10,350 bases of DNA from a virus (lineage: Duplodnaviria > Heunggongvirae > Uroviricota > Caudoviricetes): IMG/VR virus record IMGVR_UViG_2617270945_000014; one strand, written 5' to 3'. Under the pieces are notes generated by a model, which worked only from the letters and a program-made list of their open reading frames with translations, was not told the origin of the DNA and searched no databases. Below, piece after piece: positions 2,835 through 10,099 of the stretch; position 1 is the stretch's first letter; the number at the start of each line of letters is the position of its first letter. A program made the translations under genes and the position numbers.

Positions 2835-2862
2835 AAAAAAACAAAACCCGCCGAAGCGGGTT
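2835..2862 (-). terminator. Rho-independent terminator for minus-strand transcription, downstream of hok
   Basis: GC stem AACCCGC / GCGGGTT with a CGAA loop (2845-2862), followed on the minus strand by a U-rich tract (the A-run at 2835-2846 on the + strand). It lies 68 nt past the hok stop. Confidence 0.75.
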
Positions 2863-2930
2863 AAGTGCGGGTGCGTTGAGGATGCCTGACACATCAGAGG
2901 TGGCGAGGGATTTCTCCCCCGCCAGGTCTC

Positions 2931-3086
2931 TTACTCCTCAGGTTCGTAAGCTGTGAAGACAGCGACCTCCGTCTGGCCGGTTCGGAGTCGTACCTCGCAG
3001 AGGTCTTTCCTCGTTACCAGTGCCGTCACTATGACGGTTAAACAGATGACGATCAGGGCGATTAACATCGCCTTTTGCTGCTTCAT
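2931..3086 (-). CDS. hokD: Hok/Gef-family type I toxin (small membrane-depolarising peptide), HokD/RelF-like
   Basis: 51-aa product MKQQKAMLIALIVICLTVIVTALVTRKDLCEVRLRTGQTEVAVFTAYEPEE, recognised from memory as near-identical to E. coli HokD/RelF and close to Gef/HokC. It has one transmembrane helix and the conserved Cys. Start taken at the internal ATG (3084-3086) rather than the 70-aa in-frame extension. Confidence 0.9.
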   Translation of the reverse strand: MKQQKAMLIALIVICLTVIVTALVTRKDLCEVRLRTGQTEVAVFTAYEPEE

Positions 3087-3323
3087 AGCCTGCTTCCCCT
3101 TGCCTTTCGGCACGTAAGAGGCTAACCTACATTTGTGAGACATAGATTGGGCCTCAGATTAATGTTAAGCGTCTTGCAGGACGCGAAATGTTAACTGGGG
3201 CTTTTCTCTATCTGCCTTTCAGTGTTCATGCCTGAGACAGATAGCCTCAAGCACCCGCAGCCATTCTACTTAACTCACGTCACCTCGCCAATATGAAATC
3301 AATCAGAAAGGTGATCCATAAAA

Positions 3324-4010
3324 TCACTCCTTCTCTTCTTTTCCGTAGTGGAGTTGGCCAATTTTGATAAGAGGGCGTCCCTGAGATTTGCGGTGTAGAT
3401 TGGTATCGCGCAGAGAATACACACAGCCACAATATTCCTGCTGATAGAATTTTTCGCGCTTGCTGATTTCAATCATACGGGACGAGCCGCCCTGCTTGCG
3501 CCAGTTATAATCCCAGTACACCATACCCGGATAATGCGCAACAGCTCGCCGCCCACACTCGTTAACCTGCTGCATATTTTTCCAGCGTGAAATGCCCAGT
3601 GAACTGCTGATCACACTGAAACCATTTTCAGCAGCGTACAACGCTGTCCGCTCAAAACGCATGTCAAAACACATGGTACAACGGATCCCCCTCTCAGGCT
3701 CCCATTCCATTCCTTTGGCACGTTCAAACCAGTTGTCGGTGTCGTAATCAGCATCGATAAACGGCACGCCGTGTTGTTCAGCAAAGCGAATATTTTCATC
3801 CTTACGAATTAAATACTCTTTCTGAGGATGAATGTTCGGGTTGTAGAAAAAGATGGTGTAGTCGATTCCCGAGGCCTGAAGCGCCTCCATCACTTCACCG
3901 GAACATGGAGCACAGCAAGAGTGCAGTAGTAGTTTGTTTGCCCCGTTTGGGAGCTCCAATTTAGGCCGTTTGAAATCAGCAATAGTCATAAATATTTTTA
4001 TTGGGGTCAT
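3324..4010 (-). CDS. queH: QueH-like epoxyqueuosine reductase homologue (DUF208 family); start codon uncertain (3989 or 4010)
   Basis: 228-aa ORF with motifs recalled for the QueH/DUF208 family: N-terminal [27 protein letters not shown] and C-terminal [11 protein letters not shown] (Cys-rich Fe-S ligand pattern). Neither candidate ATG has a clear Shine-Dalgarno sequence. Confidence 0.65.
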
Positions 4011-4163
4011 GAAAATAGCACAGAGTGTAGCATCAGAGCAGGTCTATCGGGAATATATGTCTAAATCTGGTAATATCTGGTTTTGACGCAAAGCGGACAA
4101 CCACGCTGGCTCTACCCTGCGCCATGAAAATGTCAATTCACATCTGAACTAATGCTCTTTAAT

Positions 4164-4589
4164 CTAGTAACGTCTAAAATACCTAACATTTCCTTGATAA
4201 AATGCCAGTACACGCTGCATAGCTTCGCTCTTCCGGCACTCGCGACAGATTATATTCAGGCGCCTGTCGTAGCGGCGTATTTCGCCGTCTGGTAACGACC
4301 AGATAAGGTCCGGATCAACCACTGCAGGTTTCTTCACCTTTGCCCTTGAGAGTTTTTTGCGAGCATTTTGCCAGTCCTTACGCGCCTGTTCAGACGGGAA
4401 TAACCCGTAACCAGAGTTGTATACATCGCCACTGGCAACCAGCTCTCTGGCGAGAACACTCATCAGATATCTTGTCGCACCTGTCCTGGCTTCCAGTTGC
4501 CGCAACGTCTCGCGACCGCTCAGACGTACAAGTTCAACAACCTGCCCTTTAATTTTTTCCCGCTCTTCTTGTGTAAATACTTTTGCCAT
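4164..4589 (-). CDS. Ren-like protein (lambda ren family) with an extended N-terminal region
   Basis: C-terminus NIICRECRKSEAMQRVLAFYQGNVRYF resembles the lambda Ren C-terminus (…FKECRQSAAMKRVLAVYG…) as recalled. It sits after the replication genes, as ren does in lambda. Start at ATG 4589, preceded by GGAGG; the ORF track's start at 4604 is a TTG. Confidence 0.6.
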   Translation of the reverse strand: MAKVFTQEEREKIKGQVVELVRLSGRETLRQLEARTGATRYLMSVLARELVASGDVYNSGYGLFPSEQARKDWQNARKKLSRAKVKKPAVVDPDLIWSLPDGEIRRYDRRLNIICRECRKSEAMQRVLAFYQGNVRYFRRY

Positions 4590-4604
4590 AAGCGCCTCCG
4601 GCAA

Positions 4605-5375
4605 TCACTTTTCCGATACAACACGGCGGGAAGAATCAGTAATCTGTCGAACAATATCCCGGTGCTTGTTCAGCTCCCGCAGCGCGGCGCAGACTCGCTC
4701 CCACTTCTGAACATCACTTTTCGCCCTGCGCAGCGCCAGGTTTGCCCTGCGAAGGGACGGAAAAATCAGCTCATCTGCTTGCGTTTCGGTAAACGATGGC
4801 AACGGCTGCACAATGTCCGCCACAGTTTCTGTTTTAATTTCTTCCTGTGTTGCGGCTTCCCGGACTGGTAACGCAGCACCTGCTGGCTGAGGAAAGGCCT
4901 TACCATCACTTTCCGTTACCAGCGCGGCTTTCGGCTCTGCTGGTAAATTATCGCCCGGCATGCAGTAACGAAATTTACCGTTCTGATTAACGCGTGCCAG
5001 CCGCCCCGTTGCGGTTACCACCGCCAGCGTGGAAGCAACCTTGCGAGTACTGACACTGAACTTACCCGCCAGTTCCTCACACGTTTTAGCCCCATCCTGA
5101 CCGATAAACTCAATCATCATGTCTGCGGTAACTTTTTGTTCGACCTCCCCGGTCAGCATATCCTGTGCTTCAGATTTTACTGGCCGCTCTTCGGTTACCC
5201 GGGATTCACCTTCGCCAGCCAGAAACCAGGTGTGACCAGTTTTATCAACGACGCCTTTTCTTTTGAGTTCCCACAGCTCGTTGACAGCCTCTTCACGACT
5301 GATTCCAAGGCGAGCTGCCACCACATGTGAAGAGGCTTTTTTCAGTGCTTTCAGTGCGTCAGATACGGTTTCCAT
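4605..5375 (-). CDS. Hypothetical prophage protein with two winged-helix-like segments (possibly DUF1627-type)
   Basis: 256-aa ORF with a GGAGGA Shine-Dalgarno sequence 8 nt upstream. Its stop abuts the start of the Ren-like gene, suggesting an operon. Function is unknown; the DUF1627 label is a weak recollection. Confidence 0.6.
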   Translation of the reverse strand: METVSDALKALKKASSHVVAARLGISREEAVNELWELKRKGVVDKTGHTWFLAGEGESRVTEERPVKSEAQDMLTGEVEQKVTADMMIEFIGQDGAKTCEELAGKFSVSTRKVASTLAVVTATGRLARVNQNGKFRYCMPGDNLPAEPKAALVTESDGKAFPQPAGAALPVREAATQEEIKTETVADIVQPLPSFTETQADELIFPSLRRANLALRRAKSDVQKWERVCAALRELNKHRDIVRQITDSSRRVVSEK

Positions 5376-5396
5376 TAAAATTTCCTCCGGACAAAA

Positions 5397-6143
5397 TTAC
5401 TTCACAACCCTCATATTGCTGACATTTGGACGCCAGCTATCCCAGTTAAACGTCACCCATCGACCACCGTTCATGGTCATGCGGTCCATAATCCTCTCAC
5501 CAAGAAGCGTACTCATTGCGGCATGATTCAGGTTTGTTAACATCCCGACACTGCACAGTGATGCTGTCCGGCGATCAATTATCTGGTGCAATACCACCTG
5601 CTCGTTTTTCGTCTCCCGCTGAACGCCTATTTCATCCAGGACCAGCAAATCAACCCCGCAAAGCTCCTGTAAAAATTTTTCCCCGGATTTGCCGTTGTCG
5701 TAGCTGTCATGCAACACGCTCATGACGTCAGACACGGTGACGATAATCACGCTGCGCCCCTTCACCATCAGCCGGTTGCCCATCGCCGCTGCAAGGTGAT
5801 TTTTCCCGGTGCCGGTTTTACCGCTGAACACAAAATTCGTGCACCCGGTCATCAGTTCGTCAGCTATGGATTTGGCCTGGCTCAGCGCGTATTTTTGCCC
5901 GTCGTTCTGCACCTGATAATTTGCAAACGAGCATTTGCTGTGCAGAGGCTGGATGCCCGAACGATTCAGGATTTTTTCCACCCGCAACTGGCGATTCTGG
6001 CGGTTAATCTCCTCGCTGCGTTTTCGTCCTTCAGCAAGTTGCCATTCCCGCCACTCCTCCACCGTCCGGTACGGTGGAACCGACCCCTGTGGTGCAAGTC
6101 TGCGAATACGTTCAAGAACCCCAACTGCCGCAATGTTTTTCAT
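5397..6143 (-). CDS. DnaC/IstB-like AAA+ replication helicase-loader (Rac YdaV-like, lambda P functional analogue)
   Basis: 248-aa ORF with Walker A (GKTGTGKNHLAAA) and Walker B (DLLVLDEIG) motifs, located immediately downstream of the O-like initiator gene. Confidence 0.85.
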   Translation of the reverse strand: MKNIAAVGVLERIRRLAPQGSVPPYRTVEEWREWQLAEGRKRSEEINRQNRQLRVEKILNRSGIQPLHSKCSFANYQVQNDGQKYALSQAKSIADELMTGCTNFVFSGKTGTGKNHLAAAMGNRLMVKGRSVIIVTVSDVMSVLHDSYDNGKSGEKFLQELCGVDLLVLDEIGVQRETKNEQVVLHQIIDRRTASLCSVGMLTNLNHAAMSTLLGERIMDRMTMNGGRWVTFNWDSWRPNVSNMRVVK

Positions 6144-6149
6144 GACACG

Positions 6150-7112
6150 TCACCCCCTGAATCCCGGCGGTATTTCAGTGTCCGGTTCAGAAATGTGATT
6201 CACGCAACGCTGCGCAGGCGAACGCCCCAGGCGGATAACCAGTTCATCCCATTTTTCCCGGAGTTTTGCCGGACTCATGATGTTTTTTACCCAGAACGAA
6301 TCCCGCTGGAGACGCCCAAACATTTCACAAATTTGTCTGTGAGTTCTGCCATCCAGCATCCGCATTGTGCGAACGTCATTGGCCCATGCTGTCCAGTTGG
6401 GTTCTTTCGGTCTAGTGATCTCGCCATCATAGCTGGCCGCCTGCTCGTAAAGACTCACGATTCGTCCCCAGATCCACTGTGCGCACACCAAATCTTCCTG
6501 ACTTCCCCACTGGCGTTTTTTCGCACTGAACACAACCGCGTCAGGGTGTCGGGTTAAAAAATCCTGTTCAGCCGTCTGCGGGTCCGGTTGCGAAGCGTCC
6601 GGACAAGAAGATCTTTTATCTGACGGATCAGGTTTTAATACTGACGGATCGGGGTCAATCATCGCCCCCCTAATCGGCAGTTTTTTATCAACAGTTGATC
6701 CATCAAAATTTGACGGGTCAACCGTTGAGGGGGCAATATTTGACGGGTCAACTGTTAACGGGTCATTTTTTGCCGGGCTAATTTTTCTTTTCGGTTTATA
6801 TGACTCACGCGCCGCCGCCGCAGCTGCTTCGAGTTTTTCCACATTAAGCCGATAGATATTGCTTACATTACGCCCACCGACCTTACGCTCTTCCTTCGTC
6901 AGCCAGCCCTCTTTCGCCAGTTCTGCAATAGCCGATTTCACTGTGGATTCACTTCTTGCACCGATCTGACGCCGGATAGTTTCAATGGCAGGCCATGACA
7001 CGCCCTCGTCATTGCTGTAGTCTGCAAGACGGGCCATAACCGCCACCCTGGATAAGATCATGCCGGTGAAGGCGCACCCTTCCCAGACAAGACCATGAAG
7101 CTTGCTGCTCAT
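6150..7112 (-). CDS. Replication initiator, lambda O-like (Rac YdaU-like); N-terminal HTH domain and internal repeat region
   Basis: About 320 aa from the first ATG at 7112 (the ORF track's longer start at 7127 is a GTG). The N-terminus has a winged-helix-like segment (WPAIETIRRQIGARSESTVKSAIAELAKEGWL). The middle contains peptide repeats (TVDPSN…TVDPSN…TVD) encoded by the DNA iterons. Confidence 0.8.
   Translation of the reverse strand: MSSKLHGLVWEGCAFTGMILSRVAVMARLADYSNDEGVSWPAIETIRRQIGARSESTVKSAIAELAKEGWLTKEERKVGGRNVSNIYRLNVEKLEAAAAAARESYKPKRKISPAKNDPLTVDPSNIAPSTVDPSNFDGSTVDKKLPIRGAMIDPDPSVLKPDPSDKRSSCPDASQPDPQTAEQDFLTRHPDAVVFSAKKRQWGSQEDLVCAQWIWGRIVSLYEQAASYDGEITRPKEPNWTAWANDVRTMRMLDGRTHRQICEMFGRLQRDSFWVKNIMSPAKLREKWDELVIRLGRSPAQRCVNHISEPDTEIPPGFRG
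6684..6790. repeat. Putative replication origin: ~30-bp-period iterons inside the O-like gene, followed by an AT-rich tract
   Basis: Palindromic cores TCAACAGTTGA (6688-6698), TCAACCGTTGA (6718-6728) and TCAACTGTTAA (6748-6758) are spaced exactly 30 bp apart. TTGACGGGTCA occurs at 6710-6720 and 6740-6750. An AT-rich stretch follows at about 6776-6800. This matches the ori-lambda arrangement of iterons within the O gene. Confidence 0.7.
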
Positions 7113-7134
7113 AAAACCCCCGAACACCGTGCTT

Positions 7135-7560
7135 TTAGTGCATCACCACAGCATTCCCTGCCGGGCCGCCGCGATTCATCTGGTCATACAAAACAACCGC
7201 TGACGCAACAAAATCATCGACATCCTTCCCCAGCCGATCCCTCCGTTCGACGATCTCACGGTAATATTCAGAACTGTGGCTGCGCATACGGGCCACCAGC
7301 AAAGGCGGCATCGCCTTTTCGATCGCCGGTAACAGAGCCTGCATTTTTTCAACAGCATCAGGGGTGTCTTTCTCTACCCAGCGGAAAATTTTCTGGGTAT
7401 TGCGAGCCAGGGCTTCCGGATGGCTGTCGTCATACAGTTCCGGGAACGTCATACCCAACTCAAAATAAGCCTGGGTTATTCCAGCTGCTGGAACTTTTTC
7501 GCCATCAGGACGCGCCCAGGCATTCATCGCCATGCGGATGTGTTCATGCTTGATTTTCAT
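7135..7560 (-). CDS. YdaT-like protein (Rac prophage YdaT family; in the cII position)
   Basis: 141-aa ORF with AGGAG 9 nt upstream of ATG 7560, overlapping the end of the YdaS-like gene by 17 nt. Size and position match Rac ydaT. Sequence identity is recalled, not searched. Confidence 0.65.
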   Translation of the reverse strand: MKIKHEHIRMAMNAWARPDGEKVPAAGITQAYFELGMTFPELYDDSHPEALARNTQKIFRWVEKDTPDAVEKMQALLPAIEKAMPPLLVARMRSHSSEYYREIVERRDRLGKDVDDFVASAVVLYDQMNRGGPAGNAVVMH

Positions 7561-7825
7561 GAATCAAGCTCCTAGAAAGTGGTTGTGTTAACGTTTTGGT
7601 ATCTTCCAGCTCGGGCCAAATATTCATCCAATCAAAAGGCCTTAGTTGCTGACGTGTAACTTCACCATTACTGGCTCGCTCAATAAGGACACATAACGAT
7701 GCCCCTAACACTTGACCTTTACTCAATGCCTTTCTTAGATAACCGATGCTGGTACCACACTCGCATGCAAACATACGCTGTTCATCTGACGAAAGAGAAT
7801 TGAGAAATATTCTTAATTCTTCCAT
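7544..7825 (-). CDS. Cro-like HTH regulator (YdaS/DicC-position), first gene of the early-right operon
   Basis: 93-aa ORF with AAGGAG 7 nt upstream of ATG 7825. It is divergent from the repressor gene and contains an HTH-like segment (CGTSIGYLRKALSKGQ). Confidence 0.7.
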   Translation of the reverse strand: MEELRIFLNSLSSDEQRMFACECGTSIGYLRKALSKGQVLGASLCVLIERASNGEVTRQQLRPFDWMNIWPELEDTKTLTQPLSRSLIHENQA

Positions 7826-7854: not shown

Positions 7855-7930
7855 TACCCACAGGTAAACAAAAGTCAATACCCATAGGTTGTTTACCTTG
7901 CGGTAATCGCATCTATTATTTACCTATGGA
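7855..7930. promoter_or_regulatory. Divergent promoter/operator region between the cro-like and repressor genes (OR-like)
   Basis: Three copies of a 12-bp dyad motif: TACCCACAGGTA (7855-7866), TACCCATAGGTT (7879-7890) and TACCTATGGA (7921-7930, overlapping the repressor ATG). There is also a perfect 10-bp inverted repeat, AGGTAAACAA (7862-7871) / TTGTTTACCT (7889-7898). Confidence 0.65.
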
Positions 7931-8345
7931 CAAATATGAATTTAGACGACAGCAACTCATCAAAATTCGTGATGAGAAATGCGATGGTAAAGCGGTTAAC
8001 GTGGCCAGAAAGATCGGGCGCGAGCCTTCTTATGTATCAAGAATGTTGTACCCAGAGGGGAAAAAGGGAAAAAAACGGATCGCTGATGATATGGTGGAGA
8101 TTATCGAAGAGTCCTTTGGGTTACCCCGGGGATGGATGGATGGTATCGTTTCATCATCAACGAACACAGCCTCCAGTTATGAAACAAGGGTTCTAACGCC
8201 ACGACAACGTATTTTTTTAGATCTCTTAGACGAACTGCCAGAAAGTGAAGCGGATAAATTATTAAAAACTCTTGAAGAGAAAAAACAGTATTACAATATG
8301 ATCTACGAAGAAATCCGTAAAAAGAAAGCACAAAACGCATCATAG
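7926..8345 (+). CDS. Prophage repressor, DicA/RacR-like HTH protein (no S24 peptidase domain)
   Basis: 139-aa ORF divergent from the cro-like gene. It has an N-terminal HTH-like region, and its C-terminal LPESE…LL motif resembles DicA (…LPESEQ…) as recalled. No Shine-Dalgarno sequence precedes the ATG, so the mRNA may be leaderless. Confidence 0.7.
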   Translation: MDKYEFRRQQLIKIRDEKCDGKAVNVARKIGREPSYVSRMLYPEGKKGKKRIADDMVEIIEESFGLPRGWMDGIVSSSTNTASSYETRVLTPRQRIFLDLLDELPESEADKLLKTLEEKKQYYNMIYEEIRKKKAQNAS

Positions 8346-9683: not shown

Positions 9684-9741
9684 TTTCTGGTGACGTTTGG
9701 CGGTATCAGTTTTACTCCGTGACTGCTCTGCCGCCCTTTTT
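9684..9741 (+). ncRNA. dicF: DicF small RNA (ftsZ-targeting sRNA of Qin/Kim-type prophages); 5' end approximate
   Basis: Sequence TTTCTGGTGACGTTTGGCGGTATCAGTTTTACTCCGTGACTGCTCTGCCGCCCTTTTT matches DicF as recalled. It ends in an intrinsic terminator and lies immediately upstream of dicB, as in K-12. Confidence 0.75.
9699..9741 (+). terminator. Intrinsic terminator forming the DicF 3' end
   Basis: GGCGG (9699-9703) … CCGCC (9731-9735) stem, followed by TTTTT (9737-9741). Confidence 0.65.
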
Positions 9742-9910: not shown

Positions 9911-10099
9911 ATGAAAACGTTATTACCAAACGTTAATACGTCTGAAGGTTGTTTTGAAATTGGTGTCACTATCAGTAACCCTGTATTTACTGAAGATGCC
10001 ATTAACAAGAGAAAACACGAACGGGAGCTATTAAATAAAATATGCATTCTTTCAATGCTGGCCCGTTTACGTCCGATACAAAAAGGATGCTGGCAATGA
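9911..10099 (+). CDS. dicB: Cell-division inhibitor DicB (MinC-dependent)
   Basis: 62-aa product MKTLLPNVNTSEGCFEIGVTISNPVFTEDAINKRKHERELLNKICILSMLARLRPIQKGCWQ, matching DicB as recalled. GAGGG lies 8 nt upstream of the ATG. Confidence 0.85.
   Translation: MKTLLPNVNTSEGCFEIGVTISNPVFTEDAINKRKHERELLNKICILSMLARLRPIQKGCWQ

Follow-up and report, generated by a model that had tools for sequence, protein, structure and literature searches.

The queH gene and its product

The window analysed here, i.e., the whole stretch of 10,350 nucleotides of IMG/VR virus record IMGVR_UViG_2617270945_000014 (Caudoviricetes), is the early region of an Escherichia coli prophage, which is lambdoid and of Qin/DicF type. 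The interval 3087-4163 contains (i) the leader and promoter of a hok toxin gene (3087-3291); (ii) queH (3324-3989), the subject of this work, which is predicted to encode an epoxyqueuosine reductase; (iii) a 174-bp spacer up to the stop codon of a DUF977 gene. At its full extent the open reading frame (ORF) of queH covers 3324-4010 on the minus strand (228 amino acids), from an ATG at 4010 which is not conserved. In the alignment with the chromosomal homologues, their starts fall on the ATG at 3989 and not on that at 4010, thus the former is taken as the start codon. The coordinates of all features are given in Table 1.

The gene had been assigned to the DUF208/QueH family in an original prediction made without database searches, and the profile search bears this out. 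QueH matches Pfam PF02677 (DUF208, IPR003828) with an E-value of 1.1e-65 and 221.5 bits (the cut-off being 23.5 bits), over positions 1-174 of the 175 of the profile. The Cys motifs quoted in the prediction are present: HSCCAPCS (residues 23-30), RCTMC (103-107) and YCGC (186-189), in the numbering of the 221-residue protein. The structure of Thermotoga maritima QueH (PDB 7LC5) is matched at 8e-22 over 175 residues. The NCBIfam scan gave no QueH match at E ≤ 0.01, though the Prokaryotic Genome Annotation Pipeline (PGAP) names the protein QueH.

An AlphaFold2 model was built from a shallow alignment. The top five PDB matches obtained with this model in Foldseek are all T. maritima QueH, 7LC5/7LC7 being the best (E-value 2e-10, TM-score 0.80 normalised to the target, root-mean-square deviation 3.3 Å). 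The next matches are alpha-hydrolase folds of TtuA and LarE type.

Twelve QueH sequences were aligned, i.e., those of T. maritima, Staphylococcus aureus and Listeria, three faecal-virome sequences, sequences of Proteobacteria and the window protein. Six Cys are invariant over this alignment (C25, C26, C104, C107, C187 and C189 of the window protein). The conserved Cys of QueH reportedly ligate a [4Fe-4S] cluster and an adjacent mononuclear iron. The whole set CC..(C/D), RCxxC and YCGC is found in the window protein (C25, C26, C29, C104, C107, C187 and C189). The «catalytic Asp», for which the original prediction proposed a check, is a misleading criterion: Cys29, within the CCAPC motif, occupies the position of T. 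maritima Asp13, and a Cys stands there in the window protein and in all ten other non-Thermotoga sequences. Since only T. maritima has Asp at this position, Asp13 does not define the family within the alignment. The site is nevertheless functionally important in the Thermotoga enzyme, as the PDB holds D13N and C9S mutants.

Residues ~197-221 (window 3324-3401) form a basic C-terminal tail of 25 residues, kept across proteobacterial QueH and without counterpart in the aligned part of the T. maritima enzyme (residues 4-178 of 192). This tail may be a tRNA-binding extension.

The gene of the window is a canonical full-length QueH and not a diverged member of the family: its product keeps all invariant residues and has 88-92% identity to QueH of non-phage chromosomal context in Scandinavium, Kluyvera and Enterobacter, and 75-80% across alpha-, beta- and gammaproteobacteria.

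Relatives, selection and capture of the cassette

Relatives were scanned with one genome per species, and 595 were returned. QueH of Escherichia albertii is 100% identical to the window protein and lies in the same prophage context. Identity is 92% for Scandinavium, 91% for Kluyvera, 83-90% for Enterobacter, 78-87% for other Enterobacterales and 74-81% for Pseudomonas, Stenotrophomonas, Sphingomonas, Neisseriaceae and Rhizobiales. Among these relatives, the phage genes that surround queH in the window are found at the E. albertii locus only. The neighbours of queH in Scandinavium, Kluyvera and Enterobacter are ordinary chromosomal genes in a non-phage context: short-chain dehydrogenase, metallo-beta-lactamase-fold protein, Hcp, DHDPS-family protein, chorismate mutase, GNAT acetyltransferase, LysR regulator and EAL protein. 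The flanks of chromosomal queH are syntenic within genera (e.g., Serratia, Rahnella, Erwinia, Arsenophonus). Two records are probably mislabelled: «Bacillus subtilis SK7B5» (locus L081) has the Stenotrophomonas gene order around queH, and «Pseudomonas lundensis I31» (locus L029) that of Serratia.

The ratio of nonsynonymous to synonymous substitution rates (dN/dS) was calculated for four prophage alleles, i.e., those of the window, of the Qin-type prophage of a Shiga toxin-producing E. coli, of a Rac-type prophage and of strain 7/2. Between them dS is 0.11-0.45 and dN 0.007-0.025, leading to dN/dS values of 0.04-0.065. The value against the Scandinavium chromosome is 0.036. The low dN/dS between prophage alleles indicates that QueH is under strong constraint while phage-borne.

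The DNA shared with the chromosome of Scandinavium, and likewise with the Rac-type prophage, delimits a cassette which extends from 50 nt 5' of the ATG to 4 nt beyond the stop codon (Table 1). This cassette is common to unrelated prophage backbones (Qin-like and Rac-like) and missing from Qin of E. coli K-12. It is thus a distinct insert with conserved phage modules on either side, missing from related phages, as is expected of a moron. The proposal that queH is a tRNA-modification moron fits these observations, i.e., captured cassette, conserved -10 element and strong purifying selection.

The -10 element in question is an extended one, recognised only through the alignment of upstream regions. 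The sequence TGCTACA(A/C)T is found at -42 to -44 of chromosomal queH in Scandinavium, Kluyvera, Enterobacter and Symbiopectobacterium, and related TGCTAnnnT motifs are found 5' of queH in further genera. The cassette was probably captured from an Enterobacteriaceae chromosome together with its own extended -10 element and coding sequence. As the conserved -10 lies within the captured cassette, queH would have arrived with its native promoter core and would be transcribable independently of pR. This suggests an expression of queH which is independent of phage promoters.

Distribution and annotation status

The gene queH is present in 995 of the 5426 complete E. coli genomes (18%), nearly always as a single copy; 22 genomes carry it at two places, and 1014 of the 1017 places are chromosomal. 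Most copies (985/995) are near full length. PGAP gives the name «epoxyqueuosine reductase QueH» to all the listed E. coli copies. A prophage queH beside hok, which had been called unusual, is thus a common and already named gene. The module of four genes, orf82-hok-queH-DUF977, occurs in 671 genomes. As to the enzyme that E. coli normally uses, QueG was correctly given: queG is present in 5426/5426 complete genomes, thus queH always comes on top of queG and replaces it in none.

The situation differs in phage resources. IMG/VR contains 190 viral contigs with close relatives of QueH. This allele type is found in one of 50,697 phage records, that of Escherichia phage HannyBb (complete 45-kb genome), where it is labelled «hypothetical protein» (locus L092, 8980-9666). 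PHROGs assigns QueH to phrog_3217, «unknown function» (E-value 1.7e-138). There is, therefore, an annotation gap: QueH is named in RefSeq bacterial genomes and unrecognised in phage resources. A survey of viral 7-deazaguanine genes published in 2019 found no homologues of QueA, QueG or QueH in the viruses analysed (PMC6884629). No description of a prophage queH in E. coli was found in the literature that could be searched. It must be added that the UNVERIFIED_ORG Staphylococcus (282 kb) and Listeria «phage» records with QueH look like host DNA.

The hok/sok locus

All the parts expected of a hok/sok type I toxin-antitoxin locus are present 3' of queH, i.e., toxin ORF, leader with mok, promoter, fold-back pairing and terminator, the Sok RNA being predicted. 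The leader match (Rfam RF01794) ends at the hok ATG, and its start lies 7 nt downstream of the promoter-like site. The predicted full-length mRNA has a minimum free energy of -173.7 kcal/mol (z = -7.6), and its 5' segment GGGUGCUUGAGG pairs with its 3' segment CCUCAACGCACCC. A site on the opposite strand, matched once in the window with 0.01 match expected by chance, is the putative sok promoter. The mok-like ORF extends hok in frame on the N-terminal side and ends at the same stop codon; the equivalent ORF of HannyBb is annotated as «MokW-like host killing protein». The hok/sok locus is thus a separate, self-contained and intact type I toxin-antitoxin unit.

Organization of the window

Upstream of queH, on the same strand, lie the DUF977 gene and the genes of replication and early regulation, from the DUF1627 gene to the cro-like gene. 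The prophage is confirmed as Qin/dic type because the DicF small RNA and the DicB ORF are present. An IS66-family element adjoins the 3' end of the ORF of 82 amino acids (orf82), with a junction near 2511-2541. Homology to the uninterrupted prophage of AR_0013 starts only at 2541; the IS66 element has therefore replaced the downstream DUF968/RusA/Q region in the window. At gathering thresholds, Rfam matched only the hok leader and DicF in the window, and no preQ1 or cobalamin riboswitch was found 5' of queH. The PADLOC models gave no match for QueH, DUF977, DUF1627 or orf82.

Table 1. Position and strand of the features of the window.
Feature	Position	Strand	Description
queH coding sequence	3324-3989	minus	221 amino acids, 666 nt; PGAP annotates the same coding sequence as QueH
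queH cassette	3320-4039	minus	blastn: 4039-3320 vs. Scandinavium chromosome, 4038-3320 vs. Rac-type prophage
Extended -10 element TGcTACACT (predicted native queH promoter)	4024-4032	minus	~43 nt 5' of the queH ATG; read from the sequence
Spacer, DUF977 stop codon to queH	3990-4163	minus	174 bp, AT-rich, 41-44% GC
hok toxin coding sequence	2931-3086	minus	51 amino acids; Pfam PF01848, E 1.6e-22; 98% DNA identity to K-12 hokD
mok-like ORF	2931-3143	minus	70 amino acids; PHROG 251 «MokW-like host killing», E 1.1e-32
hok leader / sok-complementary region	3081-3256	minus	Rfam RF01794, 120.5 bits, E 1.1e-27, full model 1-157
hok promoter-like site TTGGCG-17-TAGAAT	3263-3291	minus	7 nt 5' of the start of the leader match (3256)
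Intrinsic terminator-like hairpin, end of hok transcript	2845-2862	minus	
Predicted full-length hok mRNA	2836-3256	minus	~421 nt, 5'-3' fold-back pairing
Candidate sok promoter TTGCCT-17-TAACCT	3100-3128	plus	single match in the window; chance expectation 0.01
ORF of 82 amino acids (orf82), 3' of hok	2515-2763	minus	
DUF977 / Ren-like gene	4164-4604	minus	Pfam PF06163, E 9e-28; PHROG 142
DUF1627 gene	4605-5375	minus	
DnaC/IstB-like loader	5397-6143	minus	
O-like replication gene	6150-7127	minus	
YdaT-family gene	7135-7560	minus	
cro-like gene	7544-7825	minus	
cI-like repressor gene	7926-8345	plus	
DicF small RNA	9685-9736	plus	Rfam RF00039, 76.7 bits
DicB ORF	9911-10099	plus	
IS66-family element	83-2511	plus	tnpA 83-520, tnpB 517-867, tnpC 898-2511

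The variable neighbourhood and the history of K-12 Qin

The neighbourhood was compared in 80 loci of IMG/VR whose QueH is identical. DUF977 is found 5' of queH in 78 of them, and hok is found within 1.2 kb on the 3' side in 54. In 21 of the 80 loci hok is missing over this distance, and most of these 21 have a restriction-modification system there instead. The hok leader is interrupted by various insertions: (i) in about 20 of the 80 loci, a type II restriction-modification pair, i.e., a C5 methyltransferase and an NgoMIV-like endonuclease; (ii) the Kiwa pair KwaA/KwaB in strain 7/2; (iii) IS3-family transposase genes in locus L170; (iv) the relBE-ydfV-flxA-ydfW segment, which lies at the hok-leader site in K-12 and in strain 7/2. 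The insertions cover 4845-6861 in locus L098, 4153-5792 in L085 and 5042-6676 in L170, the equivalent in the window being 3085-3269. A Rac-type prophage (L084) contains queH without hok. The recurrence of insertions into the hok leader indicates that addiction and defence modules have a hotspot in the segment just 3' of queH. The pair queH and DUF977 is the stable upstream edge of this hotspot.

In Qin of K-12 the gene order is rem-hokD-relE-relB, in agreement with what had been stated for hokD and relBE. Homology between the window and K-12 around hok covers 2837-3100 (98%) and ends 14 nt 5' of the hokD ATG. The statement that queH stands where relBE lies in K-12 Qin is therefore correct, and it is exact when STEC2018-607 and its Qin-type prophage serve as the reference: the stretch which there holds the hok leader, queH, a methyltransferase fragment and DUF977, together with the replication gene and the 5' part of ydaT, is taken in K-12 by relE-relB-ydfV-flxA-ydfW. 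Strain 7/2 contains both the relBE-type set and the queH set. From rem to ydfW the identity of K-12 to this strain is 100%, and the match resumes inside ydaT, K-12 ydfX being the remnant of this ydaT-family gene. In other words, K-12 Qin (L002, 3820-6947) corresponds to the prophage of strain 7/2 (L085, 1-9079) minus L085 2541-8495, a segment which contains an ISNCY fragment, a remnant of the hok leader, Kiwa, queH and DUF977 together with the replication gene and part of ydaT. Given this identity minus one segment, K-12 Qin looks like a deletion derivative, and most likely the K-12 lineage lost queH by deletion. As read from these alignments, there were two successive events, an insertion in the hok leader and then a deletion, and not a simple exchange of queH and relBE.

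Proposed role of the prophage QueH and alternatives

The product of queH would be an epoxyqueuosine reductase, an Fe-S enzyme of the adenine-nucleotide alpha-hydrolase fold. The cassette lies in an accessory slot of lambdoid prophages (Qin-, Rac- and related types), between the replication/DUF977 genes and the hok/nin/Q region. In a lysogen, QueH would reduce epoxyqueuosine (oQ34) to queuosine (Q34) without cobalamin on the tRNAs for Asp, Asn, His and Tyr (GUN anticodons). It would act in parallel with the core enzyme QueG, and the maturation of queuosine would become independent of external B12.

E. coli does not synthesize B12 de novo. Since QueG needs a cobamide, a prophage QueH would secure Q when B12 is scarce. 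The QueG step of E. coli is described as B12-dependent (Frey et al. 1988, as cited in PMC4646009), QueH is known as a replacement of QueG (PMC5372724), and S. aureus has both enzymes, which is a precedent for keeping the two (PMC13443448). The likely explanation of the locus is a prophage-supplied canonical QueH which gives a cobalamin-independent route from oQ to Q, carried on a captured cassette and separate from hok. Its activity in E. coli, its expression in the lysogen from the predicted promoter and a fitness benefit under B12 limitation would follow from this explanation.

Several observations weigh against it. The gene is missing from 82% of the complete E. coli genomes, and its loss, e.g., from K-12 Qin, has had no obvious cost. 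QueG being universal in E. coli, a benefit of QueH requires B12-poor conditions. To our knowledge, no phenotype separates oQ from Q, and we know of no difference in decoding between them. A simple sigma-70 scan gave no consensus promoter for queH, the -35 being weak; no obvious Shine-Dalgarno sequence was seen for queH, and no terminator-like site lies between 3324 and 3256, i.e., none before hok. Lastly, the AlphaFold2 model is of moderate confidence only (predicted local distance difference test 69.8).

A wider proposal, which is possible though rather speculative, is that the prophage QueH is a trait of lysogenic conversion which rewires the tRNA epitranscriptome of the host. Under B12 scarcity (e.g., in competition with gut Bacteroides for corrinoids) queH+ E. 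coli would have Q34 and queH- E. coli such as K-12 would have oQ34, with measurable effects on translation, stress tolerance and the expression of phage or toxin genes.

Among the alternatives, the one that survives best, though unlikely, is a gene of the lytic cycle only. Silent in the lysogen, queH would be transcribed from pR as a delayed-early gene, would complete Q34 and would tune the decoding of NAU/NAC codons in late genes. The orientation of queH agrees with this, as cro, O, P and DUF977 are co-oriented with it and no terminator lies between; so do the lack of a good -35 in its own promoter and the rise of Q levels in Shewanella under phage infection (as reviewed in PMC13191261). The extended -10 inherited from chromosomal queH argues, on the contrary, for autonomous transcription, and cryptic prophages unable to grow lytically keep queH intact with a dN/dS of ~0.05. 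Such a lytic role is compatible with the cobalamin-independent route in the lysogen.

It is less probable still that the enzyme is active and irrelevant, i.e., a redundant passenger which persists by hitch-hiking with successful prophages as QueG suffices. The presence of queG in every genome, the many genomes without queH and its deletion in K-12 Qin are what such a passenger would show. However, dS between prophage alleles rises to 0.45 and dN/dS stays at 0.04-0.065, the cassette is spread over both Qin-like and Rac-like backbones, and nearly all copies are of near full length.

A function in conflict (e.g., an altered susceptibility of tRNA to anticodon nucleases) or a substrate other than oQ-tRNA is very improbable. 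Such a function would suit a gene beside a hotspot which alternately holds hok/sok, relBE, Kiwa and type II restriction-modification genes, and whose upstream neighbour belongs to a family of Ren-like exclusion proteins. Yet the protein is near-identical to QueH of housekeeping context and has no match in PADLOC, and no dpdA, queC, queD or queE is annotated in the prophage regions examined. A diverged family member with a different substrate, suggested in the original prediction, is rejected on the near-identity to chromosomal QueH and on the presence of all invariant residues. A role in DNA modification is rejected because dpdA and queCDE are missing from the annotated prophage regions.

Finally, a common operon with functionally linked products of queH and hok, for which the same strand, the gap of 237 bp and the lack of a predicted terminator between the two genes would speak, is hardly credible and was rejected: hok is equipped with a promoter-like site, a full leader and a terminator of its own and shows fold-back pairing, queH is found without hok and, in K-12, hok without queH, hok is near queH in only part of the IMG/VR loci, and hok-family loci are common where queH is missing. 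The proximity of queH and hok would rather reflect, with fair probability, a shared insertion hotspot and not a shared function.

Significance

If the prophage QueH is active as an oQ reductase, the state of E. coli tRNA (Q or oQ) when B12 is limiting would differ from strain to strain, according to a prophage. K-12 would then represent the «lost» state, which bears on the reading of studies of tRNA modification and B12 dependence made with K-12. A tRNA-modification enzyme would also join the list of lysogenic-conversion genes and, within the literature searched, would be the first described phage-carried enzyme of Q-specific tRNA modification, counter to the survey of 2019 (PMC6884629). What is new is the prophage context: the enzyme family is characterised, and the gene is an ordinary, well conserved one, already named QueH by PGAP.

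Comparison with known systems

The T. maritima enzyme (7LC5) and the window QueH share family, length class, the six invariant Cys and, in the model, the fold (TM-score 0.80). They differ in sequence (30% identity), in the residue at the position of Asp13 (Cys29 in the window protein) and in the basic tail of 25 residues, which the crystal sequence lacks; only the window QueH is carried by a prophage.

The chromosomal QueH of Scandinavium, Kluyvera, Enterobacter, Serratia, Erwinia, Providencia and Photorhabdus are 80-92% identical to the window protein, and queH of the closest genera has the same upstream TGCTACA(A/C)T. These genes lie among ordinary genes, while the window queH lies in the early region of a lambdoid prophage.

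QueG of E. coli has the same predicted reaction as QueH, i.e., oQ34 to Q34 on tRNA, with an unrelated fold and cofactor; queG is a core gene (5426/5426) and queH an accessory one (995/5426). In S. aureus both reductases are present in one cell, which was read as a redundancy tuned by cofactor availability (PMC13443448). There, both are treated as the organism's own genes, whereas the second enzyme of E. coli is prophage-borne and strain-variable.

Phage DpdA clusters (FolE, QueD, QueE, QueC) resemble the window in being phage-borne genes of the queuosine/archaeosine pathway. These clusters modify phage DNA and lack the Q-specific steps, and the survey of 2019 reported no QueA, QueG or QueH (PMC6884629), whereas the window has a lone Q-specific tRNA enzyme, dpdA and queCDE being missing from the regions examined.

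The relBEF operon of K-12 (relB-relE-hokD) belongs to the same type of prophage, with a hokD 98% identical to hok of the window. In K-12, hokD has no leader, promoter or sok region and is fused behind relBE; in the window hok/sok is intact and queH lies on its 5' side.

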